A stretch of 56,290 bases of DNA, from the NCBI GenBank assembly GCA_004796385.1, contig QZLD01000267.1, forward strand, positions 1-56,290. The letters are read 5' to 3'. Numbering within the stretch: the first letter of the stretch is position 1; each line of letters opens with the position of its first letter. The translations under genes were made by a program, and so were the position numbers. Positions 13,105-34,812 of the stretch are shown one piece after another. The stretch comes from Gammaproteobacteria bacterium. GTDB lineage: Bacteria > Pseudomonadota > Gammaproteobacteria > QZLD01. The notes beneath the pieces were generated by a model that was not told the DNA's origin, searched no databases, and saw nothing but the letters and a program-made list of their open reading frames with translations.

Positions 13105-13127
13105 TTGTTTTTAGCTTGTGTTTTGAG

Positions 13128-14783: not shown

Positions 14784-14791
14784 TTTTTTCT

Positions 14792-16231
14792 CTAACTGGT
14801 GTAGTTGATTCTTGCCGCACCCCAGTGTTTACCGTTAATAAATATTGGAGCGGATACTTCTTTAACAAGAGCAAAGTTACCGCCACCAAGATCACGACGA
14901 TAAGTTTGTAGTAAGAACGGTTTTGTATTTTTGGCGGATTTTAGTCCTACTCTGTCATCGAATATTCTTCGATTGCGACAATTTGACATATTCCATTGCA
15001 CATCATTTGTCTGTGGTTGAGACACTGATTTCATATGTGTGCCAATGTAACCATTGATATCACAGCAGACACTGGCAACAATATTGGGTAGTTTTCTTGA
15101 TGCTTCTTCCTGAAAAGGTGGAAACAGTCTGTCTGTAAGGTCAACAAAAGAGGTAGAAAACTGTTCCGGATTTGTTTCAGGAATAGAATCGTAGGTAAAG
15201 TCGAACAGTTTTTCCTCAGAAATTTCACCTCGCGATATTGCTTCTGCAAGAGTCGATGATGCGTTTGAGGCCATTTCTTTGGCTAATTCAATATAAGGAG
15301 TGTCAACTGTTTCAACCCCTTCAACCGCCGTCATGGTAATTAATTCCTGCGAAAATTCCAGAAGGTTATTAAGTTTATCGCTGGTGGAATTAATGTTTTC
15401 ATCTGATTCACGTATGCTGTCGGAAAGGGTATTTAGTTGTGAAACGGTTTTGTTTATTGCTCTGTCGATAGATTTAACTGAGTTGTTTGAGTATTCGGCT
15501 AGAACTTTTAGTTTTTCCAGAGTATTTACTGCTTTTTCTGAGCTGGAGGGGATTATGTCTATGTTTTCGTTTACTTTTTCTGAGAGTCTGGAGCATTCTT
15601 CTCCTTTTTTTTGCAAACCAATTGTGACTTGTTTTAGTTCACTTAGGATTTTATCAATTTCCTGTGTAGAATCGCTTGCCTGTTTTGCCAGTGTCTTAAC
15701 TTCATTTGCAACTACAGCAAAACCTCTTCCAGACTCTCCTGCTCTTACAGCTTCAATAGTTGCATTTAAGGCCAGGAGATTTGTCTGTTTGGCGATAGTG
15801 CCGATTCTTTTAGCTACCTTTCTGACATTTGCCAGAGATATTGAGAAGTTGTCGAAATGGTTATTTATGGTTGTTGCAGTTTCTCCGAGAGTGAGCAGGC
15901 TGCGTACGGATTTGTCTATTTTTATACGGTTGGAGTGGGCAATAGTTTCGGCATTTTCTATTGCTTTATTAATATTTCCGGTGCACTGATCTATAGTGTG
16001 ATTATTTTGGTCAAGGGTTGATGCAGCAATTTGCAACTCTTTTGTAAGGTCTGATTCTCTGGATACTTTCTCTGCAACTTCATCAACGCAGCCGGCGATG
16101 TCGACCACCTGAATGCCCAAGTGTCCGGCTGTGACTGCCGCCTGATTTATGACTCTGCGAAGTTCTTCAACTCTGACGCTGTTGTATTGCGAATCTTTTT
16201 TATTTTCTTTTTTCATTAATGGTGGTGGCAT
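14792..16231 (-). CDS. Soluble methyl-accepting chemotaxis protein with a C-terminal ~170-aa sensor-like domain
   Basis: 479 aa with no TM segment. The MCP tip is [38 protein letters not shown]. The C-terminal domain contains [34 protein letters not shown] and [12 protein letters not shown]. Confidence 0.85.
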
Positions 16232-16252
16232 TAATAATTATCTCCATGTTAC

Positions 16253-17722
16253 TTAGTCATGAGTAACTTTTAAATCGTATGTTAATCTTAGTGCTCCCCA
16301 GTGTTTGCCATTAACATACAGTGGTACTGAACAGTCTTTAACCAGCGCATATTCTCCGTTACCAAGAGGTGCTCTGTATGTCTGTAGTAAAAATGGTTTT
16401 GTGTTTTTGGCAGCGGCTAAGCCCACAGGGTCATTGAACATCATGCGATAGCGACTGTTTGTCTTATTCCACTCAGGATCATTTGGCCTTTGGGGGTGTG
16501 ATCTGAAGTTCATGTGTCTTGGCATGTAACCGTTGATATCTACAGCTACGCAGGCTGTAACTCTGTCGTTTTCCAGTGCAGGTTCCTGAATTGGTGGAAG
16601 ATGTTTGTCGCAGAATTCAGCGTATCTGGTCATTAGCTGTTGTGGATCGGTATTAGGAATAGGTTCGTAGTTTTGATCAAACAGATCTTGTTCGGTAAGT
16701 GAGCCTTTCTGAATTGCTTCTTCAAATAGCGTTTCAATTTGCTTTGCTTTACTTTTTACCATATCTATCATTGGAGTATCTACTGTAACAACTCCGGGAA
16801 CAACCGTGTATCTGATTAGTTCTTCTGTCCATGTTCGTAGTGTTGCTGCACGATCTCTTGCTTTTGAAACGGTATTTCGGGCTTCCTCAACATCTGATGT
16901 CAGGTCATTGAGGCCCTCAACAGTTTTTTCACATTGTATATCGATCTCTTTAACCGCATGTACTATATCTGTTGATTCACTGTCAATATCGTGAACAGTG
17001 TTGCCGATAGATTCAATTACATCCTGAATTTGTTGAGTTCCTTTTCTTACTTCGTTGGCTGTTTCTTTGTTGGCATCGCCCTGAGAGATAAGTGCTTCGA
17101 TCTGGGTGCTGAGGGTTGATAGGGTAGAGCTGATCTGAATAGTTGAATCGCCGGTTTTCTTTGCCAGATTTTTGACTTCTTCAGCAACAACAGCAAAGCC
17201 TTTGCCGGATTCGCCAGCTCTGGCGGCTTCTATTGTTGCATTGAGAGCCAGAAGGTTAGTCTGTTTTGCAATAGAGCTAATGGTTATTGCAATTTTGCGG
17301 ACTTCTTTAAGGGCATTACTTAGCTCTGCCAGTTGGTCGGAGCTTTTTGTAACCGATTCAGTAAGAATCATAATGTCGCTTAAAGACGATTCGATTGTTA
17401 CTTTGGAATCTTCGATGCTGGTGTTGGCGGTGTTTGCCAGTTCTTTGGCGTTATTTACTGCAGAATCAACCTTTTTATTGTTCTGCATCAGGATATTTGA
17501 GATTTCCTGCAGTTGTTTGAACATCTCTGTTTCATGTTCAATTTTTGCGTTAAGAATATCTACCCGACCTGCAATATCTACAACTTCTGTTCCTAAGCTG
17601 CCAACGCTACCTGCAGTTTTTTGCAAGGCGGCCATAACAACATCAGGATCAAAATCTCTGCTGTTTTCTTCATTCTTTTCTTTGTTATTGGAAAAGAAAT
17701 TTTTAAAAAAAGATAATCCCAT
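16253..17722 (-). CDS. Soluble methyl-accepting chemotaxis protein, paralogue of 14792..16231 with the same C-terminal domain
   Basis: 489 aa with no TM segment. The MCP tip is [38 protein letters not shown]. The C-terminal domain shares [25 protein letters not shown] and [12 protein letters not shown] with its neighbour. Confidence 0.85.
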
Positions 17723-18049
17723 GTTTAAAGATCTTCTTCCTTATGTATGTTAAACAAAGTGTTTCTTATATCTTTGTATAGTTGATTATTGCAGAAATGT
17801 GTATTGCAACCGATTTTTTGAGAAGAAACCGTAATAAACTCTGCCAACCAACTCTCAGGTTTAAGTATAGAAGAAAAAAACAGAAATGAAATTTAAGATA
17901 AAAAATCTTTTTTTGCTATTGTTTGCTATTCTTAAATAGGTATAAAGATTCTGGTTGTTATTATGCTTAAATGGTGTTTTAGTTGGCTGACAGATTCGGA
18001 ATTTTTAAAGTAGAATTTACATAACATTTTTTAAAGGCAGATTTTTATT

Positions 18050-19702
18050 ATGGCCTCACCAGAGGGTGATAAAGATAAACTGAATAAGTTACGAAGTCGG
18101 TTTAAGGAAGAGTTGCCGGCAAAAATCGCAGATATTGAGTTTTGCTGGATCAATGTATTAAAAAACAATTCTAAAGAATCTCTGCATGCTATGTATCGCC
18201 TCGTTCATGATCTTTCTGCTTCCGGCGTTGCGCTGAAATATCCTCAGGTTAGTGAGCTTGCCAGAACAATTGATGTGGCTTTGCTTCCGGTTGTTGAGGG
18301 CGAAGAGCGTATTGGTGATGAGCTTAAAGACGTACTTGATGATTATCTTAAAGCGCTTTCCGACCTTGACCTTGATGATGATCCTGAAGTAGAGGTCGAA
18401 AGTTCTGATCAGTTGTTAGGTAGTGGTTATAAACTTCGAACTGAAGATTTTCTGGTTTACCTTTTAGAGGCTGATCGTGAGATATCTGAAGATATAGCAG
18501 ATCAGGTAAGCCATTTTGGTTACAGAGTTGAAATATTTCATTCATTCATTGATCTTTTTACCAGCCTTAGTGATGATCGTGCACCAGATGTTCTGGTTAT
18601 GTCGGTAAATATTCCCGGTGTGGAAATAACACCTGCTGAGGCTGCTGACCAGATAAGAAAAATAAGTTATAACGATCTTCCTGTAGTATTTCTTTCCGAT
18701 AATGATGATATTGAGCATCGTTTGATGGCGGCCAGATCAGGTGCGGATGCCTATTTTGTAAAGCCTATTGATGTACATGAAATGATAGATCAGCTTGATA
18801 AGCTTACCGGTGAAGAAAAGGTTGATCCGTTGCACATAGTTATCGTAGAAGATAGCGCTACCCAGTCACTATATTACTCTTCAATTCTGGAAAGGGCAGG
18901 AATGGAGACCAGTGTTATCAATGATCCTCTGGAGATTCTCACAGTTATGGAAGAGGTCTCGGCAGATATGATCCTGATGGATATGTATATGCCGAAATGC
19001 AGCGGTATGGAGTTGGCAAAGGTAATCAGGCAGTTTCCGGCCTATGCCAGTATTCCGATAGTTTTTCTTTCAGCAGAGACTCAAATAGAGCGGCAACTGG
19101 ATGCAATGAGTCTTGGTGGTGATGATTTTTTGACCAAGCCAATCAATCCTCCTCATCTTATTCGTTCGGTTGCCATAAGGGCTGAAAGAGCCAGAATACT
19201 TAGAACATTTATGATAACTGATAATCTTACAGGGCTTTTAAATCATACGAGAATAAAAGAACAGTTGATGCACGAAGTATCCAGAGCTGGACGTAAAAAA
19301 GGTGTTATGACCTTTGCAATGATAGATATAGATCACTTCAAAAATGTTAATGATACCCATGGGCATCATGTCGGTGACAGGGTAATAAAAAGTCTTGCTC
19401 GGGTTCTTCAGCAAAGATTGCGTCGCTCCGATTATATTGGTCGATATGGTGGTGAGGAATTTGCGGTTGTATTGCCGGATGCCGATGCAGAACTTGCGAC
19501 AAGAGTTCTTGATGAGATCAGAAAGAACTTCGGAGGTATCAGGCAACACTCTCCCAAAGGAGATTTTGCAGTTACATTCAGTGGAGGAATTGCAACTTTT
19601 CCTGAGTGTAAAGATGCTACTGAGCTTGCTCTTGAGGCCGATAAAGCTCTTTATGTGGCAAAAGAAAGAGGCAGAAACTGCATAGTTAAATTCAGTAAAT
19701 AA
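18050..19702 (+). CDS. Hpt - degenerate receiver - receiver - GGDEF diguanylate cyclase
   Basis: 550 aa. It has an N-terminal Hpt-like helix with His (LVHDLSASG). The first REC-like domain has Ser where the phospho-Asp belongs (PDVLVMSVNIPG). The second REC is canonical (IVEDS, ILMDMYMP, FLSAE, TKP). The GGDEF domain carries RYGGEEF and an RxxD I-site (RRSD) five residues upstream. Confidence 0.85.
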   Translation: MASPEGDKDKLNKLRSRFKEELPAKIADIEFCWINVLKNNSKESLHAMYRLVHDLSASGVALKYPQVSELARTIDVALLPVVEGEERIGDELKDVLDDYLKALSDLDLDDDPEVEVESSDQLLGSGYKLRTEDFLVYLLEADREISEDIADQVSHFGYRVEIFHSFIDLFTSLSDDRAPDVLVMSVNIPGVEITPAEAADQIRKISYNDLPVVFLSDNDDIEHRLMAARSGADAYFVKPIDVHEMIDQLDKLTGEEKVDPLHIVIVEDSATQSLYYSSILERAGMETSVINDPLEILTVMEEVSADMILMDMYMPKCSGMELAKVIRQFPAYASIPIVFLSAETQIERQLDAMSLGGDDFLTKPINPPHLIRSVAIRAERARILRTFMITDNLTGLLNHTRIKEQLMHEVSRAGRKKGVMTFAMIDIDHFKNVNDTHGHHVGDRVIKSLARVLQQRLRRSDYIGRYGGEEFAVVLPDADAELATRVLDEIRKNFGGIRQHSPKGDFAVTFSGGIATFPECKDATELALEADKALYVAKERGRNCIVKFSK

Positions 19703-19722
19703 TCGTTGTATATGGTAAAAAG

Positions 19723-20262
19723 ATGGCTGAATATGTTTTTAAAGGATATATGTGTCAGGGTATTCACCTTGTAGATGGTGGTTATATAGGAGTAATGTCC
19801 TGGGATGTGGATAAAACCAAGTCGCATATATTTGAATTATGGTATTTTGATGGCAAAGGTACCAGGAATTGTCTCTATTCTTCTGAACCGGCTAAAGAGA
19901 TAATATTGCCTCATTATAATTTTGATGATTATCATGAAGCTGAATTTTCAGAAAAATGGATAACCGATAATTTGCTTGAAATAACGGTTATCGGTAAAAA
20001 AGATAAAATTTCAATAAAAATAGAGGCGGAAGAGTGGCATTTATGGGGAAAGGCCACAATAGAAGGGGTAACTGAAAATAAATATCGCTATACGCATGAA
20101 CCGGAGCAGATGGCATTTTGTCGGTCTGTAGAGATAGTCATTAATGGCAAAGCAGTAGAAGTGCAGAATGATCAAAGTGAGATATTATTTGTAGGTACTG
20201 CTCCAATGCCGAATAAACCTCTTCTGACAAAATGTATCAGAAGAGTTTATCCTCCCGAGTAG
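19723..20262 (+). CDS. Hypothetical protein, probably co-transcribed with the GGDEF gene
   Basis: 179 aa starting 20 nt after the GGDEF stop on the same strand. No TM segment and no motif that I recognise. Confidence 0.5.
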   Translation: MAEYVFKGYMCQGIHLVDGGYIGVMSWDVDKTKSHIFELWYFDGKGTRNCLYSSEPAKEIILPHYNFDDYHEAEFSEKWITDNLLEITVIGKKDKISIKIEAEEWHLWGKATIEGVTENKYRYTHEPEQMAFCRSVEIVINGKAVEVQNDQSEILFVGTAPMPNKPLLTKCIRRVYPPE

Positions 20263-20276
20263 TTTTATTCTTACCG

Positions 20277-21938
20277 CTATCCTAAATTGATTTTAACTTT
20301 GTGATGAACTTTCTTTAACGCATCAGAAAGATTATTGCAGAAGTTTGATTTTCCAACCGATTCGATTATTCCTGCACGTTCCATTTTGTGCCTGACTTTG
20401 CTGTTTGCTCCGGAAATAATTACATTTGTGCCATAGCTTTTTAATTTATGAATAACCTCTTCCAGAGTAATAAGTCCGGTAACATCAATAAATGGCACCT
20501 CTTCCAGCCTTATAATAAGGTTTTTGATTTCAGTATTCGACATAGACAGAGCTTCTTCAAATTTTTCTGCAACCCCAAAAAAGAAGGGGCCATCAATAGT
20601 AAATATCATTATGTTATCAGGATTTAAAGGTATGTCAGTTTCATGATTATTGAAAATAATATCAGTTCTTGACTCCTGTTTTATCTCTACACTGGAAGCC
20701 ATTCTTCTCATAAAGTGCAGGGTAGCAAGTATTACTCCTATATTTACAGCAATAACCAGATCGGCAAATACAGTGAGAGAGAAAGTAACCAATAGAATAA
20801 CAATATCGGCTTTTGGAGCACCTTTTAGTATTTTAAAGAAATGTTTAGCTTCGCTCATATTCCACGAAACTATAAAGAGTATTGCCGCAAGTGTAGCCAG
20901 AGGAATGTCTTTTGCCAGTGGTGCAAGAAACATAAGAATCATAACAAGAGTTATTGAATGAACAATTCCTGCCAGAGGGCTGTTGCCGCCGTTTTTTATA
21001 TTGGTGGCAGTTCTGGCAATGGCTCCTGTTGCAGCAATCCCTCCGAATAAAGGAGAGACAATATTGGCTATTCCTTGTCCGACAAGTTCCTGATTAGAGT
21101 TATGTTTGGTTCCGGTCATGCCATCTGCAACAACTGCAGAAAGTAGCGATTCAATAGAACCAAGCATGGCAATAGTAAATGCCGGGCCGATTAACTCAGT
21201 AATTTTAACTACAGTTATTTCAGGGATATTCAAATCAGGCAGGCCGCCGGGAATTCCTCCATCAAATGCAGAGCCTATGGTTTCTATACCTTTAAATCTG
21301 AATATCATATGCAGAGATGTGGTAGTCAGAAGGGCAATTAAAGGGGCTGGAATCTTTTTTATCCATTTTACTTTCGGGGTGATTACAAGGATCATCAGTG
21401 CCATTAGCCCAATTAGGGTGGTAGATAAATTAAGATGTGGTAATTTTTGTAAGATGCAGCTTAATTTGTCTATAAAATGTTCTCCGCTAACCTCTTTAAG
21501 GCCAAAAAAATTGGGCCATTGACCAATAAAAATTATTACAGCAATTCCAGATGTAAAACCAATGATTACCGGATCAGGGATATATTTAATAACCCCACCC
21601 ATCTTGGTTAGGCCAAGAAGAATCAGAATTAATCCAGCCATAATTGTTGCTATTTGAAGGCCTGCAAAGCCGTATTTAGCTGTTATTCCGGAAAGAACAA
21701 CAATAAATGCGCCTGTTGGCCCTGCAATCTGAACGTTTGTTCCTCCGAAGATAGAAACAATAGCGCCAGCAATAAAAGCAGTATACAGGCCTTGTGCAGG
21801 GGCAACGCCGCTGGCTATGGCAAAGGCCATTGCCAGAGGTAAAGCAACAATGCCGACAACAATTCCTGAAAAAATATTATTGATAATATTGTTTTTAGAA
21901 AAAGCCTTGTTTTTATACGCATCAATTATGGCGAGCAT
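20277..21938 (-). CDS. SulP-family anion transporter with C-terminal STAS domain
   Basis: 553 aa and polytopic, with SulP-like segments (GIVVGIVALPLAMAFAIASG, NQELVGQGIANIVSPLFGGIAATGAIARTA). The C-terminal ~120 aa are soluble and STAS-like (FTIDGPFFFGVAEKF...FIDVTGLITLEEV). Confidence 0.85.
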   Translation of the reverse strand: MLAIIDAYKNKAFSKNNIINNIFSGIVVGIVALPLAMAFAIASGVAPAQGLYTAFIAGAIVSIFGGTNVQIAGPTGAFIVVLSGITAKYGFAGLQIATIMAGLILILLGLTKMGGVIKYIPDPVIIGFTSGIAVIIFIGQWPNFFGLKEVSGEHFIDKLSCILQKLPHLNLSTTLIGLMALMILVITPKVKWIKKIPAPLIALLTTTSLHMIFRFKGIETIGSAFDGGIPGGLPDLNIPEITVVKITELIGPAFTIAMLGSIESLLSAVVADGMTGTKHNSNQELVGQGIANIVSPLFGGIAATGAIARTATNIKNGGNSPLAGIVHSITLVMILMFLAPLAKDIPLATLAAILFIVSWNMSEAKHFFKILKGAPKADIVILLVTFSLTVFADLVIAVNIGVILATLHFMRRMASSVEIKQESRTDIIFNNHETDIPLNPDNIMIFTIDGPFFFGVAEKFEEALSMSNTEIKNLIIRLEEVPFIDVTGLITLEEVIHKLKSYGTNVIISGANSKVRHKMERAGIIESVGKSNFCNNLSDALKKVHHKVKINLG

Positions 21939-22426
21939 ATGGCATATTCCTTAATACGATAACTATGGTTAAAAATCAGAGTACTTAGTGCTTATACCCT
22001 CCTGATAGTCAGTCAATATAGCGTTGGCGGACTACTGGAGCAGGAACCAAATATCATTGGATTACCAGCTAAAATCAATTTAATTCAGTACACTATTTAT
22101 GTCGGGTATATTTTAAAAGTCAGGATTGGAAAAATCGTAAAGATAATCCTCAAGTGACACTCAATAAAAATAGCGGCCAACGTGTCCTTGTGTTTATAAA
22201 GTAGTGCTTGTGACAGGCGGTGCCTGAAAATATGAGATGCTTTATTGCCGCTGCGGATCGCTTATCCAAAAACAGTGAATTTTTGTATTGCTCCAATCCG
22301 TGAGGCGAATATGTTACAAAATTACTAATGATCTTACAATTAAACAAAATGACTTTTCTATAAGCGCTTGTTTTTTATTATGGTTATTACTATGTTTAAG
22401 AGTAGGATTTGAAAAGGAGTTTTGAT

Positions 22427-22921
22427 ATGCCAATGGATGATGACGAGCAGGAAGAGAATAGTCAAAAACGACTTCCGGAAGATCACCTGCACAAATCGGT
22501 AACGAAAGCCGGATTGATAATTTTGGCAATAGCTTTTTATATGTTGCTTTATCCTATGTGGGATGTACTTAAAGGTTATTCTGATGCAGAAGGGGTTTAT
22601 GAGCCTCTTAAAGAGCAGTTTACCAGCCTGAAAAAAGAGCAGACTGAGTTGGCTAAAGCTGATCCGGAATCTCCGGTTATTGAAGAGTTGATAGAAAAGC
22701 AGAAGGTGATGCAGATTAAGCTGGTGGAAAAGCTCGGAGAATATCGATTTTTTCAGAGAAAATTCATCATATTTCTGGTGGTTATGTTGCTGTTTTTTCT
22801 TACAGGGATGATAACTGCTATTGTCGGTTTAGCTATGTGTTCGGAATATCGTTCTAATTTTAAGGAAGATAAGAAAAAAGATGAAGAAGAGGATGACGAA
22901 GAAGGCGGGGATAGAGAGTAA
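22427..22921 (+). CDS. Hypothetical two-TM membrane protein with acidic termini
   Basis: 164 aa from the ATG at 22427, preceded by AAGGAG at 22414-22419. It has two hydrophobic helices separated by a charged helical segment, and a KKKDEEEDDEEGGDRE tail. It lies upstream of the RND operon on the same strand. Confidence 0.5.
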   Translation: MPMDDDEQEENSQKRLPEDHLHKSVTKAGLIILAIAFYMLLYPMWDVLKGYSDAEGVYEPLKEQFTSLKKEQTELAKADPESPVIEELIEKQKVMQIKLVEKLGEYRFFQRKFIIFLVVMLLFFLTGMITAIVGLAMCSEYRSNFKEDKKKDEEEDDEEGGDRE

Positions 22922-23034
22922 CTTCGTTTCGGATGCTTATCAGTCAGTATAATCCCATTCTTTATGAGTCTGATTCGGCCTATTTATGCTATTATCGCGC
23001 AGGGTTATTCTCGTATTTATCAGTCAGGAATTAT

Positions 23035-25395
23035 ATGAAACCGATAAGAGCACTACTGCTGTTTTTGTTTTTACCTCTTTGTGTTTTTGCAGGAGAGAAA
23101 AAGGTAAATATAACAGCTGTATTTGATAGTTATGGAGATTCTGTTGCCGCTGATTTATGGGCACAGGTTATTTCCGAAACCAGAGGGTTGCTTAACGAAG
23201 AGTATAATATTGAATTTTCGGAAACATATATAGCAGTCGAAACAAAAGGAAAAAAGCGCAGATATGTAGATAAGATAAATGAAGAGCTGCAAAAAGCCGA
23301 TGTCGATATAATTATAACAATGGGGGCTTTGGTTTCAGATGCAGCGTCAAAGGTGGAAAAACCATCAAAAAACATTATTGCTCCCATAGTAATTGACGCT
23401 AAGTTGCAGGGGTTTCCTGAGAATAAAAGTAAAAGCGGGACTATATTCAGTGGCCGGAATAACTTTACATACTTAACTTCTTACCAAACAGTTCAGAGGG
23501 ATTTAGGAGCTTTTTATGAAATGCTTGGTTTTAAAAGTTTGCTTGTAATAGTAAATAAAAATATTACCAGCGCCTCTTTTTTTCAAAGATTAAGAAAATA
23601 CAGTGAAAAAAACTCGATATTCTCAATAAATATTGCAGCTATTGAAGATGAAAGCGATATTGAAAAACTTGATTTGTCTGTTGCTGATGCTGTTTATTTT
23701 ACCCCGTTGGGTGTTGCTGAAGAAACAAAGCAAATATTGATAGATAAAATTAATAAGGCCGGGATTCCGTCATTTTCTATGTATGGAAAAAGCGATGTGG
23801 AATCGGGGGTTTTAATGGCTGCTACAGATAACGATAACAATGCTCGTTTAGCCAGAAGGATAGCCCTTTCGGTTCAAAGCATATTGTCAGGGGAAGAGGC
23901 TGCTTATCTGTCTACTGATTTCAGAAAAGAGTTTGAGCTTGTAATAAATATGAAGACAGCAGCAGAAATCGGATTTTATCCGAATTGGGAGCTGCTTGCG
24001 GAAGCTGAACTTATAAATGCAGACAGAGGGCGGAATTTTCCGGATATGAGTATGCGGAATCTGGTAGATCTGGCTATTAAGAATAACCTTTCACTGGAGT
24101 CGGCAGGTATAGGTCTTAAGATGGGAGAAGAGAATGTAAGTTCTGCAGCGGCAAAGTTAAGACCGAAAGTGGGTTTGGGCTTGACTGAGGTTAGACTTGA
24201 TGAAGAACATGTTTCCCCTTTTCAGTATCAAAACGAAACCAGGGCAGGGATTTCAATAGAGCAAGTGGTATTTTCGGAGATGGCTTGGGCTGGATATTCA
24301 ACCGAGAAGTTATTACAAAAGGCTCGTAGTGAGGAGTATAAATCCTATAAAAAAGATATCGTTTATCAGGCTGGAAAGTTATATTTGACTCTATTGCAGA
24401 TTGATTCACTTAAGAAAATAGCCCTTGGTAACCTGAAGATAACCAAAAACAATCTCAGATTAGCGCGGTTGCGGGAGTCGGTAGGTTATTCCGGTCGCGC
24501 AGATATTTATCGTTGGCAGAGTGAGGTTAATAACGATAGAAAGGAACTGGCTCAGATAATATCTGCATATAAACAGATGTTGATTAAGTTAAATGCAGTT
24601 ATTGGGGCTGATCAGGAGAAGGAGTATAACCTGCAGGAGCCGGATAAAGATGGTTCATTTCCGCTTTTGTGTAATGGGAAAATTCTTAAATATATTGAAA
24701 ATCCACGTTCATTTGCTGTTTTCAGGGATTTTGCTGTAGAGCAAGGATTAGAATCATCCAATAAGGTCAGGCAGATCGAAAATACTGTAGCAGCTTTAAA
24801 AAAGGGGTTGTTAGCGGTAAAAGCGGATCGTTATATTCCTAATATTGGAATTAAAGGTGAGGTTTCAGAGTTATTGGATTATTCCGGTGCAGGTGGACAG
24901 ATGCTTTTAGGAAAGGATGAGACTAGCTGGAATCTCGGTTTATCCGTATCGTGGGATCTTTACTCCGGCGGTAGTAAATCTGCCGATATTCGCAGAGGAG
25001 AGTTTCGTTTGCATAAGACAATGGTGGACCTCAAGGCTTTTAAAGAGGAAAAATCGGCTCAGATCAGGGCTGCTTTGCAAAAGATTTCCGGCTCTTATCC
25101 AGCAATAAAGTTTAGTAAAGATTCTGCTCTGGCGGCAGCAAAAAATCTGGAGTTGGTGCAGGATGCCTATGCAAAAGGAGCGGTATCGGTTACAGAACTT
25201 ATCGATTCACAGAATGCAGCATTTGTTGCCGAACAAGCAGTAGTTAAGTCAAAGTATGACTTTTTGCTGGACTACCTTGATTATCAGCGTGCAGTCGGGG
25301 TATTTTCCATGCACTTTTCAAAGGCAGATGAAAATAGTTGGTTTGTAAGGTTAAACAGCTTTTTTAAAAAGCGGGGAATAGATATTAGAAGATGA
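23035..25395 (+). CDS. TolC-family outer-membrane efflux factor with an N-terminal periplasmic solute-binding-protein-like domain
   Basis: 786 aa from the ATG at 23035, with signal peptide MKPIRALLLFLFLPLCVFAG. The first ~310 mature residues resemble the ABC_sub_bind (PF04392-type) periplasmic binding fold: KKVNITAVFDS, DIIITMGALVSDAA, IIAPIVID, GIPSFSMYG..GVLMA and ELVINMKTAAEIGFYP. The C-terminal ~450 aa carry two OEP/TolC repeats. An ATGA overlap joins it to the next gene. Confidence 0.8.
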   Translation: MKPIRALLLFLFLPLCVFAGEKKVNITAVFDSYGDSVAADLWAQVISETRGLLNEEYNIEFSETYIAVETKGKKRRYVDKINEELQKADVDIIITMGALVSDAASKVEKPSKNIIAPIVIDAKLQGFPENKSKSGTIFSGRNNFTYLTSYQTVQRDLGAFYEMLGFKSLLVIVNKNITSASFFQRLRKYSEKNSIFSINIAAIEDESDIEKLDLSVADAVYFTPLGVAEETKQILIDKINKAGIPSFSMYGKSDVESGVLMAATDNDNNARLARRIALSVQSILSGEEAAYLSTDFRKEFELVINMKTAAEIGFYPNWELLAEAELINADRGRNFPDMSMRNLVDLAIKNNLSLESAGIGLKMGEENVSSAAAKLRPKVGLGLTEVRLDEEHVSPFQYQNETRAGISIEQVVFSEMAWAGYSTEKLLQKARSEEYKSYKKDIVYQAGKLYLTLLQIDSLKKIALGNLKITKNNLRLARLRESVGYSGRADIYRWQSEVNNDRKELAQIISAYKQMLIKLNAVIGADQEKEYNLQEPDKDGSFPLLCNGKILKYIENPRSFAVFRDFAVEQGLESSNKVRQIENTVAALKKGLLAVKADRYIPNIGIKGEVSELLDYSGAGGQMLLGKDETSWNLGLSVSWDLYSGGSKSADIRRGEFRLHKTMVDLKAFKEEKSAQIRAALQKISGSYPAIKFSKDSALAAAKNLELVQDAYAKGAVSVTELIDSQNAAFVAEQAVVKSKYDFLLDYLDYQRAVGVFSMHFSKADENSWFVRLNSFFKKRGIDIRR

Positions 25396-26510
25396 AACGT
25401 CAAATAGCAAATGGCTGTGCCGTTTTAAGTATTTTGTTCTTATTGGTGGCAGGCTGCAAAGATAAGAATAAAGCTCCTTTGAAAGAGATAATAAGGCCAG
25501 TTAGATATCAGTTGGTTACTCAATCAGATACAGGTGTGAGTAAGGGTTTTTCAGGCATGGCTCAATCTGCACTTCAGGCAACTATGAGCTTTAAGGTTTC
25601 AGGAACAGTAAAAAGAATAGCTATAAAGGTTGGTGATCAGCTAAAAAAGGGAGATGAAATTGCTGTTCTTGATGCGCGTGATTACGAATTAAAGGTTGCT
25701 GAAATAAGTGCAGGAGTTAATAGAATAGAATCTCAGTTGCGTAATGCCAGAGCAGTTTATAAAAGATCGCGCAAGCTATATGAGCATCGCAATATTTCCC
25801 GTAATGATTATGATGCAGCCAAGGCAGCATATGAATCGACACAGTCATTGCTGGAATCCACTAAAAAACAGTTACAGCTGGTCAGAAGGCAGTTGCAGTA
25901 TACTAAGTTAAAGGCTGATGAAAAGTGCAGCGTAGCAGCTAAGTTGGTTAAAAGAAATGAGAATGTTGCTCCGGGGCAGCCTGTAGCAATATTGAATTGC
26001 GGTGACAGAATCGAGGTGGAGACAGCGGTACCGGAAATATATATATCCAATGTAAAAGAGAGCGAAAAGGTAAAAGTTAGATTCGATGCCTTTCCTGAAA
26101 AAATATTTACAGCGAAAGTATCCGAGGTTGGAGTGGCTTCGGTAAGCAGCCTGACGGCATTTCCTGTAACGGTGATTCTTGATAAGGGCAGTAATGGTAT
26201 CAGGAGTGGTATGACTGCCGAAGTTATGATTCCGGTAGATGATAGTGAAGAAACGCTATATATAATCAATCCAAAGGCTGTTCAGCATGATGGGGAAAGC
26301 ACATTCGTATATAAGCTGACCTCTTTAGGAGTTGGAGATAATTCAGTATATACCGTATCTAAAGACAAAGTATTAATTGGAAAGCTGCGTGCAGATGGAA
26401 TAGTTGTAAAGGAAGGTCTATCAGATGGAGATATGATAGTTACAGCAGGACACAGAACACTTTATCCGGGAATAAAGGTTAGGCTGCTGGAGACAGAAGG
26501 TAGCAAATGA
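25392..26510 (+). CDS. RND efflux periplasmic adaptor (membrane fusion protein)
   Basis: 372 aa with a lipoprotein-like N-terminus (LLVAGCKD), a biotinyl/lipoyl-like hairpin (GTVKRIAIKVGDQLKKGDEIAVLD) and a coiled-coil segment. ATGA overlaps occur at both ends. Confidence 0.88.
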   Translation: MKRQIANGCAVLSILFLLVAGCKDKNKAPLKEIIRPVRYQLVTQSDTGVSKGFSGMAQSALQATMSFKVSGTVKRIAIKVGDQLKKGDEIAVLDARDYELKVAEISAGVNRIESQLRNARAVYKRSRKLYEHRNISRNDYDAAKAAYESTQSLLESTKKQLQLVRRQLQYTKLKADEKCSVAAKLVKRNENVAPGQPVAILNCGDRIEVETAVPEIYISNVKESEKVKVRFDAFPEKIFTAKVSEVGVASVSSLTAFPVTVILDKGSNGIRSGMTAEVMIPVDDSEETLYIINPKAVQHDGESTFVYKLTSLGVGDNSVYTVSKDKVLIGKLRADGIVVKEGLSDGDMIVTAGHRTLYPGIKVRLLETEGSK

Positions 26511-29500
26511 ACGTAACTCGTTATGCAATAACAAATAATCGAGCTACTTGGATTACGCTGCTGGTATTGATAATTGGCGGCATTATTTCCTATGTCAAAA
26601 TGCCGCGTGCGGAAGATCCTGCATTTATTATCAGAGTGGCTGTTGTTAAAACATTTTTTCCCGGAGCAAGTCCTGCTCGTGTGGAAAGGTTAATAACAGA
26701 GAATCTGGAAAAATCTATACGAGAGATGCCGGAGTTGGATTTTGTTCACAGTGAATCCCGTACAGGAGTTTCCGTTATCTATGTTAATGTAAAAGAAAAC
26801 TTCACTAATATGCAGCCTATATGGGACAGGTTAAGGCGTAAAGTTGAAAGGACAAAGCCTGATCTTCCTGAAGGGATAATCGGCCCTATTGTAGATGATG
26901 AGTTTGGCGATGTGTTTGGCATTAATATCGCAATAACCGGAGATGGCTTTGAATATGCCGAGATGGAAGATATTGCCGATGAGGTCAGGAATGAGTTGCT
27001 TCTTATTGATGAAACAGCAAAGGTAGAAATACATGGTCGACAGGAAGAGCGTATTTTTATTGAATATCGTAACTCGAAACTATCGGAGATAGGAGTTTCA
27101 GCGGCTCAGTTGTCGCAGATTCTGCAAGGGCGCAATATTCTTATTTCCGGCGGTAGTATTTTATATGAAGGGGAGAGAATTTCTCTGGAACCTTCCGGTA
27201 ATTTTGAATCTATTGATGACCTTAAAAAAACCATTGTAAGTATTCCCGGCAGGCCGGAACTTGTTTATTTGGAAGATTTGGTAAAAATCACCCGTGGTTA
27301 TATTGATCCTCCGGATATAAAAGTAAGAGCAACAGGTGAGCCTGCATTGGTTTTGGCTGTATCTTTAAGAAAAGGAGGGAATATATTAACGCTTGGTGAA
27401 AAAGTAAGAGATGTATTAGATAGATTGCAGGCAATTTATCCACATGGAATAGAGTTTGAAACAGCTACTTTTCAGCCGGATGTGGTTAAAAAAAAGATCG
27501 ATGATTTTGTTATGAATTTGGGGCAGTCTGTACTGGTTGTAGCATTGGTAATGTTGCTTACTCTCGGATTCAGAACAGGGCTTGTTGTATCAAGTTTGGT
27601 TCCTGTAACCATTGTAATCAGTATTTTAATAATGGCTGTATGTAAAATATGGCTGGATCAGGTTTCTCTTGCGGCACTTATAATATCGTTAGGGATGTTG
27701 GTGGATAATGCCATAGTGATTGCCGAATCTATAATGGTAAGAATGCGTGAAGGGCAGCAAAGAATAGAGGCAGCCATAGATTCCGTCAGTGAGTTAAAAA
27801 TATCGCTGTTGACGTCATCCTTAACAACATCGGCAGCTTTTTTTCCTATTTATCTGGCGGAGTCAATGACGGGAGAATACACGGTCTCAATCTTTAAAGT
27901 AGTTACTATAACCTTGTTATGTTCGTGGGTTCTGTCTCTCACATTTGTGCCTCTTGTATGTGTTCTAACGATAAAGATTAAAAATCAGAAAAACCACGAT
28001 ATTTTTGATACTGTTTTTTACAGAATTTACAGAGTTTTTTTGGGATTGCTTATCAGAAATCGCATAAAGGTTCTTTTGTTAACAGTTGTTATTTTTGTAT
28101 TGGTTATTGGGGCATCGAAAGAGGTGCCGCAGATATTTTTTCCTCCATCAGATAGAGCATTCTTTCTTGCTGAGTATGAGCTTCCGCCAGGAACGGCAAT
28201 AGAAAAAACCGAAGAAGTAGTAAATGATTTTGAAAGGTTTTATAAAGAAGAACTTATGCAGAATAAAGATAGTCATAGAGGAATTACACAGTGGACAAGT
28301 TATATTGGTCGAGGAGGGCCGCGTTATGTAGTTAACTATAATCCAAAGGTTCTTAGTCCGGATTATGCAGTACAGTTTATTAATGTAACCTCGCAAAAAG
28401 ATATACCTTATATAATGGAAAAAATAAATAAATACGCTTTTGATAACTATCCCGAATTGCATCTTCGTCTTAAAAAGAAAGATATGGGGCCGCCGGTAAA
28501 CTCACCTGTTGAGATACGCATAAGCGGAAAAAATCCTGCAAAATTATTTGATATAGCGGCAGCAGTTAAGAATAAAATGAAGGCAGTAGGTTCAAGTCGT
28601 AATATTAAGGATGACTGGGGAAGCAGAACCAAAAAGATCCTCGTTAATGTTGATCAGGAGCGAGCCAGAAGAGCAGGCCTTGCCAGTCAGGATATTGCCT
28701 TATCTTTAATGTCCGGCCTTAGTGGTTGGGAAATGACTAAGTATCGAGAAGATGACAAGATAATTCCCGTTGTACTCAGAACTCTGGAGTCTGATAGAAA
28801 AGATCTTGGTAAACTTGAGCAGTTAAATGTGGCATCTCAGGCAACTGGTGTGAGTGTGCCGTTAAGTCAGGTGGCGGATCTAAAAATGGTATGGGAATAT
28901 TCCAAGATAAAAAGGCGAGATGGAGTAAAAACCATAACCGTTTCGGCAGATCCTGTAGAAGGATATACTGCTCTGGATGTAATAACCGGAATGCAGGCAT
29001 GGCTTAATGAACAGAATGATCAGTGGGGATATGGTTATCGTTATGAAATAGGAGGAGAGGTAGAGACAACAGTAAAATCTAGTCAATCTATTGTAGATAA
29101 ATTACCAATTGCCGGTTTGATAATAATAATTTTGCTGATATTCCAGTTTAACTCCGTCAGAAAGTCGCTTATCGTGTTGGCTACAATTCCTTTGGGGATG
29201 ATAGGTGTTGTAATCGGATTAATTCTTTTGGACTCCTATTTTGGTTTTATTACTTTGCTTGGAGTGGTTTCGCTTTCCGGAATTGTTGTAAATAATGCCA
29301 TTGTTCTCATTGAAAGAATTCAGATGGAGATTGAAGAGAATAAAAGGCCGGTTAAGGAAGCCATTATCGAAGCTTCGCAAAGACGGTTGCGTCCTATACT
29401 GTTGACTACAGCAACAACTATAGGAGGATTATTACCTCTTTATTTTGGTGGAGGAGTAATGTGGGAGCCAATGGCAATAGCAATTATTTTCGGGTTGCTT

Positions 29501-29575
29501 TTTTCAACCGTTATGACTTTAGGCGTTGTGCCGACAGCTTATTCGCTGTTGTTCAGAAAAACTAATGAACATTGA
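26507..29575 (+). CDS. RND efflux permease (AcrB/AcrD/AcrF superfamily)
   Basis: 1022 aa with the typical 12-TM layout and two large periplasmic loops. Family motifs include ALIISLGMLVDNAIVIAESI and LSGIVVNNAIVLIERI. Confidence 0.9.
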   Translation: MNVTRYAITNNRATWITLLVLIIGGIISYVKMPRAEDPAFIIRVAVVKTFFPGASPARVERLITENLEKSIREMPELDFVHSESRTGVSVIYVNVKENFTNMQPIWDRLRRKVERTKPDLPEGIIGPIVDDEFGDVFGINIAITGDGFEYAEMEDIADEVRNELLLIDETAKVEIHGRQEERIFIEYRNSKLSEIGVSAAQLSQILQGRNILISGGSILYEGERISLEPSGNFESIDDLKKTIVSIPGRPELVYLEDLVKITRGYIDPPDIKVRATGEPALVLAVSLRKGGNILTLGEKVRDVLDRLQAIYPHGIEFETATFQPDVVKKKIDDFVMNLGQSVLVVALVMLLTLGFRTGLVVSSLVPVTIVISILIMAVCKIWLDQVSLAALIISLGMLVDNAIVIAESIMVRMREGQQRIEAAIDSVSELKISLLTSSLTTSAAFFPIYLAESMTGEYTVSIFKVVTITLLCSWVLSLTFVPLVCVLTIKIKNQKNHDIFDTVFYRIYRVFLGLLIRNRIKVLLLTVVIFVLVIGASKEVPQIFFPPSDRAFFLAEYELPPGTAIEKTEEVVNDFERFYKEELMQNKDSHRGITQWTSYIGRGGPRYVVNYNPKVLSPDYAVQFINVTSQKDIPYIMEKINKYAFDNYPELHLRLKKKDMGPPVNSPVEIRISGKNPAKLFDIAAAVKNKMKAVGSSRNIKDDWGSRTKKILVNVDQERARRAGLASQDIALSLMSGLSGWEMTKYREDDKIIPVVLRTLESDRKDLGKLEQLNVASQATGVSVPLSQVADLKMVWEYSKIKRRDGVKTITVSADPVEGYTALDVITGMQAWLNEQNDQWGYGYRYEIGGEVETTVKSSQSIVDKLPIAGLIIIILLIFQFNSVRKSLIVLATIPLGMIGVVIGLILLDSYFGFITLLGVVSLSGIVVNNAIVLIERIQMEIEENKRPVKEAIIEASQRRLRPILLTTATTIGGLLPLYFGGGVMWEPMAIAIIFGLLFSTVMTLGVVPTAYSLLFRKTNEH

Positions 29576-29592
29576 TGTTTTTATCGCCGATT

Positions 29593-29838
29593 TTATTTGA
29601 AAGATAAAAGATCTGAATTACCCCCCTTGTTTACAGGTGGATAGTCTTGATCTTTGGCAATACTTGCGGCAGGGAGATCAAATTGATCATATTCGGATAT
29701 AGAATACTTAATGATGTGAGTTTCAGGATAACGCGATATTAATGGATTATCATTCGATCCGCTGACATCACTATTGGCATTTGCAGAAAATGTTAGCAGT
29801 AAAAGTATGGAAAATAAGGTGGCGTTCAGGTGTTTCAT
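29593..29838 (-). CDS. Small secreted protein; possibly the N-terminal remnant of a larger periplasmic/OmpA-associated protein
   Basis: 81 aa with signal peptide MKHLNATLFSILLLLTFSANA. The segment NPLISRYPETHIIKYSISEYDQFDLP resembles, from memory, the N-terminus of DUF4892-type proteins that are several-fold longer. Confidence 0.4.
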   Translation of the reverse strand: MKHLNATLFSILLLLTFSANANSDVSGSNDNPLISRYPETHIIKYSISEYDQFDLPAASIAKDQDYPPVNKGGNSDLLSFK

Positions 29839-29865
29839 CTGGAGATTCCTTAAAAAAATTTATTA

Positions 29866-30531
29866 TTACACGACTTTTCTAAAGCATGCGCTGAATCTTC
29901 TAACCGATGGTTCTTCATTATCAATATAATCACTGAAAAAAAGCTTTTGAAAGCCATTTTCGGCAAATTGGTTAACTTCACTTCTTGTCAGAGGCCAGGG
30001 CATTTGTCCTTGATGTTCATCTTCTCCTCTTGCTCTAGTGATAAATAGTATATAACCACCTGTAGCAACCAGTCGGCAAATAGATGAAATTGCCTGCGAG
30101 CGAAGTTCAGGTGGCAGTACCTGAAGTGTGTATGACTCCTGTACCAGGTCAAATGTTTCCAGCCATTCAGATGGCAGGTTGAAAAGATCCGCCTCTGTAT
30201 ATTTGACTTTGGATTGGGGGAATCTTTTTCGGCACTCACTTATTGCAGTAGGGGAGATATCGAAGGCGGAGGTATTAAACCCCTTGCTTGCAAGCCACTC
30301 TGCATCATCACCAAGTCCACAGCCCACTTTAATTGCTTTTTTACCAAAATGGATGTGGTTAACGGAATCGTATAGTTTTATCAGATTGGGGTTGATGCAG
30401 CGGTCTGCCCAAGGAATGATTGCTCCATCGGATACCGATAAAGAGTAGAGTTGTTCAAACCATTCCAAGGGTTTGTTTGCATCTACAGCAGCGGTTGCCA
30501 GTTTTCTGGCTTGATTGCGTCTGCTATCCAT
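29866..30531 (-). CDS. Class I SAM-dependent methyltransferase
   Basis: 221 aa with motif I (KAIKVGCGLGDDAEWLA) followed by an acidic loop (AFDIS). The substrate is unknown. Confidence 0.75.
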   Translation of the reverse strand: MDSRRNQARKLATAAVDANKPLEWFEQLYSLSVSDGAIIPWADRCINPNLIKLYDSVNHIHFGKKAIKVGCGLGDDAEWLASKGFNTSAFDISPTAISECRKRFPQSKVKYTEADLFNLPSEWLETFDLVQESYTLQVLPPELRSQAISSICRLVATGGYILFITRARGEDEHQGQMPWPLTRSEVNQFAENGFQKLFFSDYIDNEEPSVRRFSACFRKVV

Positions 30532-31745: not shown

Positions 31746-31849
31746 TCTTTCCTCTTGGATTGTTTCATTGTCCGGCATTTAATATTGCATCATTATTGTG
31801 ATAATTGGCTGTTTATTAAGTGTAACTGCTATCAAGGGTAGTCATAAAC

Positions 31850-31903
31850 AAGAGCAAATGTTGCGCTCGCATTTTCTTTGTTCGAAAACGCTAAATACAT
31901 CTC
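31850..31903 (+). repeat. 54-nt interspersed element, copy A (partner at 50225..50278)
   Basis: An ungapped alignment to 50225-50278 gives 45/54 identities. This includes a 26-nt core, CTTTGTTCGAA[A/C]ACGCTAAATACATC, with a single mismatch. Both copies are in the same orientation. Confidence 0.8.
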
Positions 31904-32212
31904 CATCGTTTTAAGTATGTAAGTATAATGGGTAAGTAGTTGCTATTAAAGTATCGCCCAATGCCGGATATTTGACTGCTGTGATTTTATAAATGTTACG
32001 GATGTCACAGTTTTGACGATTTCATGTTTGGGTATAGCTGATTTTACTTTATTCAATGTTCTTATTTATGTATGTTATGAAATAACAGGCTTGGTACTGA
32101 TACCTGTTGCTTATTCTTTGAGCCACACTTATTTGCATGGAGGCAATAGTGGTTAAAACCTCTCTCTTTATAGCTGTGATCCCTCTTTTTGATTTGTTAT
32201 TCAGTGATTTTA

Positions 32213-32228
32213 TGGCATATATATTGCT
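32213..32228 (+). promoter_or_regulatory. Sigma54 (-24/-12) promoter for the fliL operon
   Basis: TGGCAT-ATATA-TTGCT fits the consensus TGGCAC-N5-TTGCW with correct GG/GC spacing. It lies 67 nt upstream of the fliL ATG. Confidence 0.7.
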
Positions 32229-32294
32229 TGGTGAGTATTGCTGTAACTCATCAATGCAGGTTGTTGCATTAATAAAATTTGGTGGTGTCGAAAA

Positions 32295-32828: not shown

Positions 32829-32837
32829 GAGTTGTAG

Positions 32838-34276: not shown

Positions 34277-34280
34277 CACT

Positions 34281-34796: not shown

Positions 34797-34812
34797 TGAT
34801 AGGGAGAAAGCA

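Follow-up and report, generated by a model that had tools for sequence, protein, structure and literature searches.

The gene at positions 23035 to 25395 of the forward strand of the window (the whole stretch of 56,290 nucleotides analysed here) codes for the outer-membrane component, or exit duct, of a tripartite RND efflux pump resembling MexJK and TriABC. Its product belongs to a large and phylogenetically broad subfamily of outer-membrane factors (OMFs) in which every protomer carries an N-terminal domain with the fold of a substrate-binding protein (SBP), and of which we found no description. The explanation we prefer for the whole, to which we give slightly less than an even chance, is a MexJK/TriABC-like exit duct that bears these SBP-fold domains as a fixed accessory collar.

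A single stop-free reading frame spans positions 22933 to 25395 (+). The NCBI record begins the gene at ATG 22933, giving a product of 820 aa, whereas the sensible start is the ATG at 23035, giving 786 aa plus stop. This shorter version is supported by a Shine-Dalgarno-like AGGA, read directly from the sequence at 23026 to 23029 (+), 5 nt ahead of ATG 23035. Residues 1–20 (MKPIRALLLFLFLPLCVFAG; 23035 to 23094, +) form a Sec signal peptide, as judged by eye from an N-terminal hydrophobic stretch (h-region) and the VFA-G that comes after it. A canonical lipobox is absent, only 5 of the 119 family members show a lipobox-like motif, and the fusion protein scores 48 bits against the cutoff of 210 for TIGR01845, which represents the NodT/OprM-type lipidated OMFs. 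The signal peptide is followed by a periplasmic class-I SBP-fold domain (residues ~23–330; 23101 to 24024, +), a short linker of near-fixed length leading to the first TolC helix (residues 331–340; 24025 to 24054, +) and a complete TolC/OEP module (residues 341–786; 24055 to 25392, +). The initial annotation had described an uninterrupted ORF with a signal peptide, and all the peptide segments it quoted are found in the translation. It had also held the fusion to be topologically possible; since the N-terminus of TolC is periplasmic, we judge an N-terminal SBP-fold extension to be topologically sensible. Scanning of positions 21900–29900 for promoters and terminators yielded a number of sites that did not exceed the one obtained from shuffled sequence.

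With regard to the C-terminal half, Pfam PF02321 (OEP) matches two stretches of the fusion protein (E 2.2e-33) and was found in all 60 family members scanned. The AlphaFold model of this module superimposes in Foldseek on 1ek9, 7ng8 and 5bun with TM scores of 0.80–0.83, showing four beta-strands, long helical hairpins and equatorial segments in the expected order, and it ends in a C-terminal helix conserved throughout the family (ER..WF.RL..FF). The match to TIGR01844 (E 3.8e-32) lies below the cutoff of that model, the module scoring 111.8 bits against the NCBIfam TolC cutoff of 225. The OMF stop codon overlaps the start of a 372-aa RND periplasmic adaptor (MFP) gene at 25392 (25392 to 26510, +; TIGR01730 E 1.1e-60, above cutoff), and the adaptor stop in turn overlaps at 26507 the start of a gene for a MexK/TriC-like RND permease of 1022 aa (26507 to 29575, +), both through the 4-nt sequence ATGA. 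PF00873 (E 1.7e-157) spans residues 5–1015 of the permease, which is thus a full-length 12-TM RND protein. Among solved structures it comes closest to MexK (E 3.7e-184) and 6vej (E 5.8e-167), the latter of which we take to be TriC; the two presumably represent the triclosan-efflux pumps MexJK and TriABC. The NCBIfam equivalog scores of the RND pump all fall far under their cutoffs. The order of adaptor and permease genes is also that of MexJK and TriABC in P. aeruginosa. The Pseudomonas operons are not known to contain an OMF gene of their own, their pumps relying on OprM or OpmH, whereas the operon studied here opens with its own, domain-extended OMF. In the usual manner of RND systems, the likely cargo of the pump would be small compounds of amphiphilic or hydrophobic character. 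No ABC ATPase homologue was found anywhere in the 56-kb window, and no ABC genes were called within ±10 kb. The two-repeat TolC module, the three-gene operon and the lack of a nearby ABC permease or ATPase, all proposed in the initial annotation, were thereby confirmed.

The same annotation suggested that an acidic protein encoded upstream may belong to the unit. This 170-aa product has no match in Pfam or NCBIfam and is confined to contigs of this organism; a homologue occurs in none of the other 84 loci, which comprise 80 genome loci together with contigs that carry three homologues of the fusion. We therefore rejected it as a component of the pump.

The N-terminal domain is recognised by Pfam as PF04392 (ABC_sub_bind) over residues 74–324 with 25.9 bits, which equals the gathering score exactly (E 6.9e-6) and is marginal when taken alone. 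A profile built from nine N-domains of the family matches two crystal structures of PF04392 proteins, 3lkv with E 3.3e-13 and 3lft with E 1.3e-5. The characterised proteins of this group are TrpX (SP1069) of S. pneumoniae (3lft, binding L-Trp), VC_1101 of V. cholerae (3lkv, L-Phe) and CD0873 of C. difficile (6hni, L-Tyr). The AlphaFold model alternates beta and alpha elements in two lobes joined by a hinge, like the class-I/cluster-B fold of these SBPs, and Foldseek aligned it to 3lkv, 3lft and 6hni with TM scores of 0.77, 0.76 and 0.71, respectively, at probability 1.0. The proposal that residues ~20–330 are of the SBP type thus holds for both HMM match and two-lobed fold (TM 0.71–0.77), and the suggested Pfam search returned the expected order, PF04392 at its cutoff score followed by two stretches of PF02321. 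Motifs common to the N-domain and these SBPs include the D of TDP, the N of NVTG, P.F, VE.G..A and IN...A. When 60 of the 119 family members were scanned, PF04392 was recognised at E≤1e-3 in 23 of them (~40%), which makes the N-domain a marginal, deep branch of PF04392. Moreover, N-domains of the family score no lower than 180 bits and stand-alone SBPs no higher than 64 bits, and by this measure of sequence the N-domain is a separate deep subfamily of PF04392.

The N-domain is conserved to nearly the same degree as the channel to which it is attached. Mean pairwise identity is 38.7% for the N-domain and 40.0% for the TolC part, and dozens of positions in the N-domain are near-invariant. A helix bearing the sequence RLARR is likewise conserved. 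Prediction with AlphaFold from the 119-sequence alignment gave a pLDDT of 93.0 and a pTM of 0.85, as compared to 78.8 and 0.60 with nine sequences. The spacer between the equivalents of the conserved A324 and N351 measures 26 aa in 99 of the 119 members, with 14 others having 25 aa, and the linker block has a pLDDT of 83–89. The N-domain is a covalent part of the OMF, held by a near-invariant spacer in an interdomain geometry that is confidently predicted (pTM 0.85).

An exhaustive profile search retrieved 1147 clusters (50% identity) at E≤1e-30, compared with only nine matches in a word-indexed homology search with the full protein; among the best 150 clusters, 115 have lengths of 740–980 aa. 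Database labels of the members are mostly 'TolC family protein' or 'hypothetical protein'. We inspected 80 genome loci, which come from metagenome-assembled genomes throughout and represent more than 10 phyla, with carriers in Nitrospirota, Acidobacteriota, Gemmatimonadota, Thermodesulfobacteriota, Gammaproteobacteria, KSB1, Calditrichia and others. Both halves lie in one ORF in 73 of the 80; in the remaining seven the gene is cut by the contig end, frameshifted, interrupted by an in-frame stop, or damaged by IS elements or rearrangement. The cluster count, the predominance of single-ORF loci and the near-equal identity of the two halves mean that the fusion is selected for. The architecture had been called atypical; this is correct with respect to the OMFs that have been studied, but not with respect to nature, given the number of clusters and phyla. 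The literature that we searched contained no description of an SBP-TolC fusion, in line with the earlier remark that no characterised example was known.

Some loci gave the appearance of split or lone versions. An in-frame stop lies within a TolC helix in L012, frameshifts occur in L074 and L091, transposase-like sequence follows the gene in L028, the gene is joined onto the C-terminus of an RND gene in L032, contig ends cut L039, L040 and L073, and P0180 is a lone N-domain amid IS elements. None of these apparent split or lone loci made a convincing case for a natural two-gene SBP/TolC version; they are explained by stops, frameshifts, contig ends and IS or rearrangement events.

Adaptor and RND genes adjoin the fusion gene in 62 of the 80 loci, and adaptor and ABC-2 exporter genes in three Nitrospira loci and also in L005. 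Since the partners may be either MFP plus RND or MFP plus ABC-2, the domain goes with the duct and not with one type of transporter. A consistent ABC importer was found nowhere across the 80 loci, and the gene neighbourhood outside the pump genes varies. We infer that the N-domain is no longer a shuttle receptor for an ABC importer.

Where the domain would sit can be deduced from related ducts. The N-terminus of OMFs leaves at the equatorial domain (PMC8277102), and by analogy the N-domain would join TolC at the equatorial belt, about 10 residues before the first helix. The structures of TolC and OprM (PMC8277102) place such a junction at roughly 50 Å above the periplasmic entrance, presumably outside the closed wall of the alpha-barrel. 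With a short linker of near-fixed length leading to the first TolC helix at the belt, the trimer would carry three N-domains as a collar outside the alpha-barrel, away from the periplasmic entrance; the predicted docking site on the barrel could be above or below the belt. In E. coli, the accessory lipoprotein YbjP binds TolC between the equatorial belt and the outer membrane in a 3:3 ratio (PMC13082787, PMC13095208), and the collar appears analogous in position to YbjP and also to the N-terminal arm of OprM, which is lipidated. The N-domain would then be a fixed accessory module, which is most likely its role, rather than that of a nutrient receptor. Such a module may support the duct or set its place within the envelope by contacting the outer membrane or the peptidoglycan; alternatively, it may help to dock partners.

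The state of the ligand pocket bears on whether the domain could still act as a receptor. Characterised PF04392 proteins contact their ligands through T71, A90, T92, D115 and N196 in 3lft numbering (PMC9382623, PMC6816091). Mapping of these positions by an HMM-based alignment, which agreed with an independent one, showed that none of the five is kept in 103 of 119 members and one is kept in the other 16; the family has V/P/L, F, I/V/L, variable residues and R/Q/H, respectively, in their place. The equivalent of G112 is Tyr in 112 of the 119. Mean side-chain volumes at the equivalents of A90, T92 and G112 are 170, 155 and 192 Å3 in the family, against 76, 92 and 107 Å3 in 26 stand-alone PF04392 SBPs. 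It should be underlined, however, that these 26 stand-alone SBPs are likewise mostly without the T/A/T/D/N set, so that its absence excludes TrpX-like amino-acid binding and not ligand binding in general. After this control, we withdrew the loss of these contacts as evidence of a dead pocket. The substitutions indicate that the N-domain is probably not an amino-acid binder. The modelled domain is nearer to closed forms (TM 0.71–0.77) than to the open form of CD0873 (0.63), and a two-lobed fold kept complete over such evolutionary depth would also fit a functional Venus-flytrap. Near-invariant polar residues located near the cleft loops (D31-G32, K112, S139-G140, N143 and R274-R275) could constitute a different binding site.

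A possible but unlikely alternative to the fixed collar is a ligand-gated or ligand-tuned duct, in which the SBP-fold domain closes on a small periplasmic molecule other than an alpha-amino acid and allosterically biases duct opening or pump assembly, the closure being relayed by way of the linker, which is rigid, and the equatorial belt. Such a coupler would need precisely a rigid linker, the two lobes are retained in full and conserved as strongly as the TolC half, the near-invariant polar residues just listed lie at the loops, pocket residues are diverse across PF04392 as a whole, and SBP-fold domains serve as sensors in other membrane proteins (PMC10443332). However, the known ligand contacts are lost and the pocket positions are filled by F, Y and I/L, the attachment at the belt would be far from the iris-like entrance helices (as deduced from PMC8277102), and the neighbourhood, being variable beyond the pump genes, offers no ligand candidate. 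The initial annotation had suggested that the domain senses or delivers a ligand at the exit duct; with the contacts replaced, the pocket bulky and the junction equatorial, we found no positive evidence for this. That TolC ducts spanning many phyla should carry a Venus-flytrap receptor, through which a periplasmic molecule closes the domain and controls duct opening or pump assembly, appears rather improbable to us.

Capture of the substrate is a still weaker candidate, which we regard as quite improbable. Here the domain would bind the substrate of the pump in the periplasm and so enrich it locally for the transporter, be it RND or ABC, or retain a secreted product. The pocket lining, hydrophobic and rich in aromatic residues (F, Y, L), could suit amphiphilic efflux substrates, and the nearest solved RND relatives, MexK and 6vej, presumably belong to triclosan-efflux pumps. 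Nevertheless, known structures suggest that the tether holds the domain close to the outer membrane, tens of ångströms from the entrances in the RND porter domain and outside the sealed duct; the tether is short, of near-fixed length and without reach; and RND and ABC-2 pumps, which share the domain, would hardly share one substrate.

The view that the domain is an inert relic, left by an SBP gene that decayed after fusing to the 5' side of tolC and is carried along without function, is strongly disfavoured and in our estimate very improbable: the canonical ligand residues are gone and Pfam recognises PF04392 at E≤1e-3 in just 23 of 60 members, but conservation equals that of the TolC half, with near-invariant positions by the dozen, a high-confidence fold prediction and retention of the fusion by 73 of the 80 loci, with more than 10 phyla represented. 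An artefactual joining of separate SBP and TolC genes by sequencing or assembly error has nothing in its favour except prior suspicion and is practically negligible in view of the uninterrupted frame, the identical protein predicted from contigs of several runs that were assembled independently, and the same junction and spacer length across 119 full-length homologues. The call for confirmation of the junction made in the initial annotation is answered by the same independent contigs together with the 73 single-ORF genomes.

Compared with known systems, the protein shares with E. coli TolC (TC 1.B.17) the two OEP repeats, the protomer fold (TM 0.80–0.83) and a signal peptide without lipobox, and like other TolC-type OMFs it is encoded alongside an adaptor and an inner-membrane transporter. 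It differs from them in the added N-terminal domain of ~310 residues, which brings the total to 786 aa where the OMF family averages 472 ± 30 aa (PMC4827864), and in the C-terminal helix ER..WF.RL..FF that is the fusion family's own. With YbjP-TolC and the OprM/NodT arm, which exemplify accessory elements at the TolC/OprM belt (PMC13082787, PMC13095208, PMC8277102), the proposed likeness is one of position alone: one element per protomer, at the equatorial belt and outside the alpha-barrel. In contrast to those elements, the present one is covalently fused, non-lipidated, of ~310 aa and of SBP fold. Unlike the characterised PF04392 SBPs, which are mobile periplasmic proteins, free or lipid-tethered, and serve an ABC importer that tends to be encoded next to them, the N-domain lacks an ABC importer partner, has its ligand contacts substituted and is fused to an outer-membrane channel. 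The SLH-domain porins (CBP family) also bear an N-terminal periplasmic domain on an outer-membrane pore (PMC4827864); both the barrel family and the fused fold are different, and their domain serves envelope attachment.

TolC-family ducts are usually viewed as bare channels of ~470 residues, and reviews and surveys of OMFs list no domain fusions (PMC8277102, PMC4827864). The report in 2026 of a hidden lipoprotein partner of E. coli TolC at the equatorial belt (PMC13082787) demonstrates the importance of accessory elements in this position. Should the domain have kept the ability to bind a ligand, this would be the first regulated outer-membrane duct, and if the Venus-flytrap reading were true, a ligand-gated outer-membrane channel for efflux or secretion. 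As a fixed collar, the fusion family would be a natural, covalent counterpart of the equatorial accessory of TolC, and would offer a tractable system for studying the role of the duct's equatorial region in the envelope.

A single stop-free frame on the + strand (22933..25395 in the ORF list of the window) covers the entire fusion. Translation from the ATG at 23035 gives a 786-aa product (23035-25395) with the signal peptide (MKPIRALLLFLFLPLCVFAG) right at its N-terminus, and a candidate ribosome-binding site, AGGA, is read in the sequence ahead of this ATG (23026-23029, +). We therefore prefer ATG 23035, also the start chosen by other gene callers, to the upstream ATG 22933 used in the NCBI record, THB64379.1 (820 aa, 'hypothetical protein', MAG Gammaproteobacteria bacterium); judged from the sequence, we favour the view that this record starts 34 codons too early. 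In the 786-aa protein, Pfam recognises PF04392 (ABC_sub_bind, residues 74-324) followed by two PF02321 (OEP) repeats (E 2.2e-33), as the initial annotation had expected, PF04392 at 25.9 bits, which is exactly the gathering score and hence marginal. Three independent lines back this match. A nine-sequence N-domain profile matches the PF04392 crystal structures 3lkv (V. cholerae VC_1101, E 3.3e-13) and 3lft (S. pneumoniae SP1069/TrpX, E 1.3e-5); an AlphaFold model from 119 homologues has pLDDT 93.0 and pTM 0.85; and in Foldseek residues ~23-330 superpose on 3lkv (TM 0.77), 3lft (0.76) and C. difficile CD0873 (6hni, 0.71), and the remainder on the TolC structures 1ek9, 7ng8 and 5bun (TM 0.80-0.83). 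By the OMF-family membership tests the C-terminal half is a non-lipidated OMF of the TolC type. The N-terminal half has PF04392 homology and fold, and lacks the functional features expected of a solute-binding protein (SBP), namely the ligand contacts known for such proteins, an importer to work with, and mobility.

The OMF stop overlaps the start of the RND adaptor gene (TIGR01730, E 1.1e-60) and the adaptor stop overlaps the RND permease gene (PF00873, E 1.7e-157), whose product has MexK (E 3.7e-184) and 6vej (TriC, 5.8e-167) as closest solved relatives. No ABC ATPase homologue was found in the entire 56-kb window, and no ABC genes were called within 10 kb of the fusion gene. The frame, domain and structure results, the gene overlaps and the absence of ABC genes thus confirm the original observation in every particular: an SBP-type domain and a two-repeat TolC in one ORF, in an overlapping OMF-adaptor-permease series with no ABC permease or ATPase nearby. 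The suggestion that an upstream acidic protein belongs to the same unit did not hold. This 170-aa ORF (22409-22921, +), whose product combines two hydrophobic stretches with a strongly acidic tail (KKKDEEEDDEEGGDRE), matches neither Pfam nor NCBIfam families and has no homologue in 84 other loci searched; we place it outside the unit because no contigs but this organism's own carry it.

Ahead of the OMF gene, the short intergenic stretch contains an exact 11-nt direct repeat, TTATCAGTCAG, at 22937-22947 and 23017-23027 (80 nt apart). Its second copy abuts the ribosome-binding site; the repeat may serve as an operator or have arisen by chance. By the gene calls of locus L001, the flanks at ~13000-22000 and 31800-35000 hold genes for two MCP chemoreceptors, a response-regulator GGDEF protein and a SulP/STAS transporter, together with the fliLMNOP flagellar cluster; in other genomes these are not conserved beside the pump. 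Over 8000-56290 the GC skew stays above zero, at about +0.1 to +0.27 for most of the 2-kb windows, and its cumulative curve climbs steadily, which suggests a single replichore with mostly co-oriented genes.

The N-domain ends ~10 residues ahead of the first TolC helix. In TolC/OprM this helix begins at the equatorial belt, roughly midway along the alpha-barrel, where the OprM lipid arm also starts (PMC8277102); in E. coli TolC the same belt is bound by YbjP, a lipoprotein discovered recently (PMC13082787). We infer that in the trimer the SBP-fold domains, three in all, would form a collar on the outer side of the barrel wall, ~50 Å from the periplasmic entrance. Tentatively, and with a little less than even confidence, we read the N-domain as a fixed accessory collar, likened to YbjP and to the OprM arm in position only, which would buttress, position or anchor the duct, or aid partner docking. 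At such a distance and outside the wall, the direct delivery of a ligand at the exit duct that had been proposed is implausible. A C-terminal helix past the second OEP repeat (residues 756-786, nt ~25300-25392, consensus ER..WF.RL..FF) is conserved family-wide; as the two ends of the chain are both located at the equatorial belt, this helix may contact the N-domain.

The PF04392 proteins characterised so far recognise L-Trp, L-Tyr or L-Phe via a common contact set (PMC10443332, PMC6816091), and the TrpX contacts are T108, A127, T129, D152 and N233 (PMC9382623). These were mapped to 3lft chain residues T71, A90, T92, D115 and N196, and 119 full-length family members and PDB fragments were aligned to one HMM, in a register matching the independent nine-sequence profile alignment. 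The family equivalents are V/P/L/I (T71), F in 59/119 (A90), I/V/L (T92), variable (D115) and R/Q/H (N196); no contact is kept in 103/119 members and one in 16/119. Since 26 stand-alone PF04392 controls likewise keep few of the five, this loss proves only that the domain is not a TrpX-type amino-acid binder. Mean side-chain volumes are larger in the fusion family than in stand-alone SBPs at the equivalents of A90 (170 vs 76 Å3), T92 (155 vs 92 Å3), G112 (Tyr in 112/119; 192 vs 107 Å3) and D115 (126 vs 90 Å3), and the modelled N-domain is nearer to closed structures (TM 0.71-0.77) than to the open CD0873 form (0.63). These bulky positions and the likeness to closed structures suggest, short of proof, that the cleft is filled and permanently closed. 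The family has near-invariant polar residues of its own at loop positions (D31-G32, K112, S139-G140, N143 and R274-R275), which may make up another binding site or else an interface; they count in favour of a ligand-tuned duct, a reading we consider rather unlikely. Substrate capture by the domain is improbable.

Mean pairwise identity among the 119 members is 38.7% for the N-domain and 40.0% for the TolC half, and the anchor-to-anchor spacer across the junction is 26 aa in 99/119 and 25 aa in 14/119. With a deeper alignment pTM rose from 0.60 to 0.85, so that the interdomain arrangement of this two-domain chain is confidently predicted. The matched identity, near-constant spacer and pTM rise argue that the N-domain is a selected, geometrically fixed module, and that it is an inert relic seems very improbable. 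An artefactual fusion is practically out of the question, as the identical protein was called on independently assembled contigs of several sequencing runs and the junction is therefore no missed frameshift or stop.

No more than nine homologues came from a word-indexed search, each 786-813 aa long and collinear end to end. The initial annotation had called the architecture atypical; an exhaustive search of 1.84 billion cluster representatives with a profile of just the N-domain yields 10821 proteins at E<=1e-3, of which 2358 reach E<=1e-10 and 1147 reach E<=1e-30, so it is not rare. Among the best 150 matches 115 are 740-980 aa long, and the shorter proteins inspected were truncated genes. 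A second search gave a clean score gap between family members with their fragments (at least 180 bits) and stand-alone PF04392 SBPs (~325 aa, at most 64 bits), indicating that the fused domain is its own deep subfamily. Variants include an extra N-terminal segment of ~100 aa ahead of the SBP-fold domain (P0104, 881 aa), a long low-complexity N-terminal region (P0137, 977 aa) and a C-terminal extension of ~200 aa (P0051, 974 aa).

A genome scan in which each species was represented by one genome confirmed 138 relatives, and the best 80 loci, all from MAGs, were analysed by translating all stop-to-stop ORFs and searching them with the window's proteins. They span Nitrospirota, Acidobacteriota, Gemmatimonadota, Thermodesulfobacteriota, several gammaproteobacterial orders, KSB1, Calditrichia, Latescibacterota, Zixibacteria, Entotheonella, Myxococcota, Aminicenantes and others. 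N-domain and TolC share a single ORF in 73/80 loci. The seven exceptions are three contig-end cuts (L039, L040, L073), a frameshift (L074), a copy with transposase-like sequence behind it (L028), a rearranged copy (L032) and L012 (CP070692.1, MAG Deltaproteobacteria bin617), where one in-frame stop at ~8081-8083 (LDLAA*DRNVAAG, within the first of the long TolC helices) leaves two ORFs of 369 and 435 aa; a pseudogene, a sequencing error and recoding are all conceivable. A single candidate for a stand-alone member came up, P0180, a lone 321-aa N-domain copy without the TolC part (6001-6966 of L089/L090, two independent Mb-scale assemblies); it is adjacent to aldolase and phosphofructokinase genes and surrounded by several transposase genes.

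The gene order is OMF-adaptor-RND in 55/80 loci (two others break off behind the adaptor) and adaptor-RND-OMF in 5/80. In three Nitrospira loci and L005 the OMF is paired with an adaptor and an ABC-2-type exporter. Since both RND and ABC-2 partners occur, the domain accompanies the duct irrespective of which transporter supplies the energy. In these operons (L005, L009, L010 and L013; Nitrospira and relatives) the fusion OMF comes first and the ABC-2 system replaces the RND pump, with the adaptor, a 909-945-aa protein that joins two ABC ATPase domains and an ABC-2 permease in one chain, and a further ABC-2 permease.

OMFs measure 472 ± 30 aa and their fusions to other domains are rare according to a 2016 outer-membrane pore survey (PMC4827864); neither this survey nor a 2021 tripartite-pump review (PMC8277102) mentions an OMF with an added domain. 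A full-text literature search found no description of an SBP-fold-TolC fusion, in agreement with the earlier statement that no characterised example was known. Pfam PF04392 recognises 23/60 members at E<=1e-3 and databases call members 'TolC family protein', 'hypothetical protein' or 'outer membrane protein', and owing to this weak recognition and these uninformative names the architecture has gone unremarked. The fusion architecture is real and widespread, and so far without a name.
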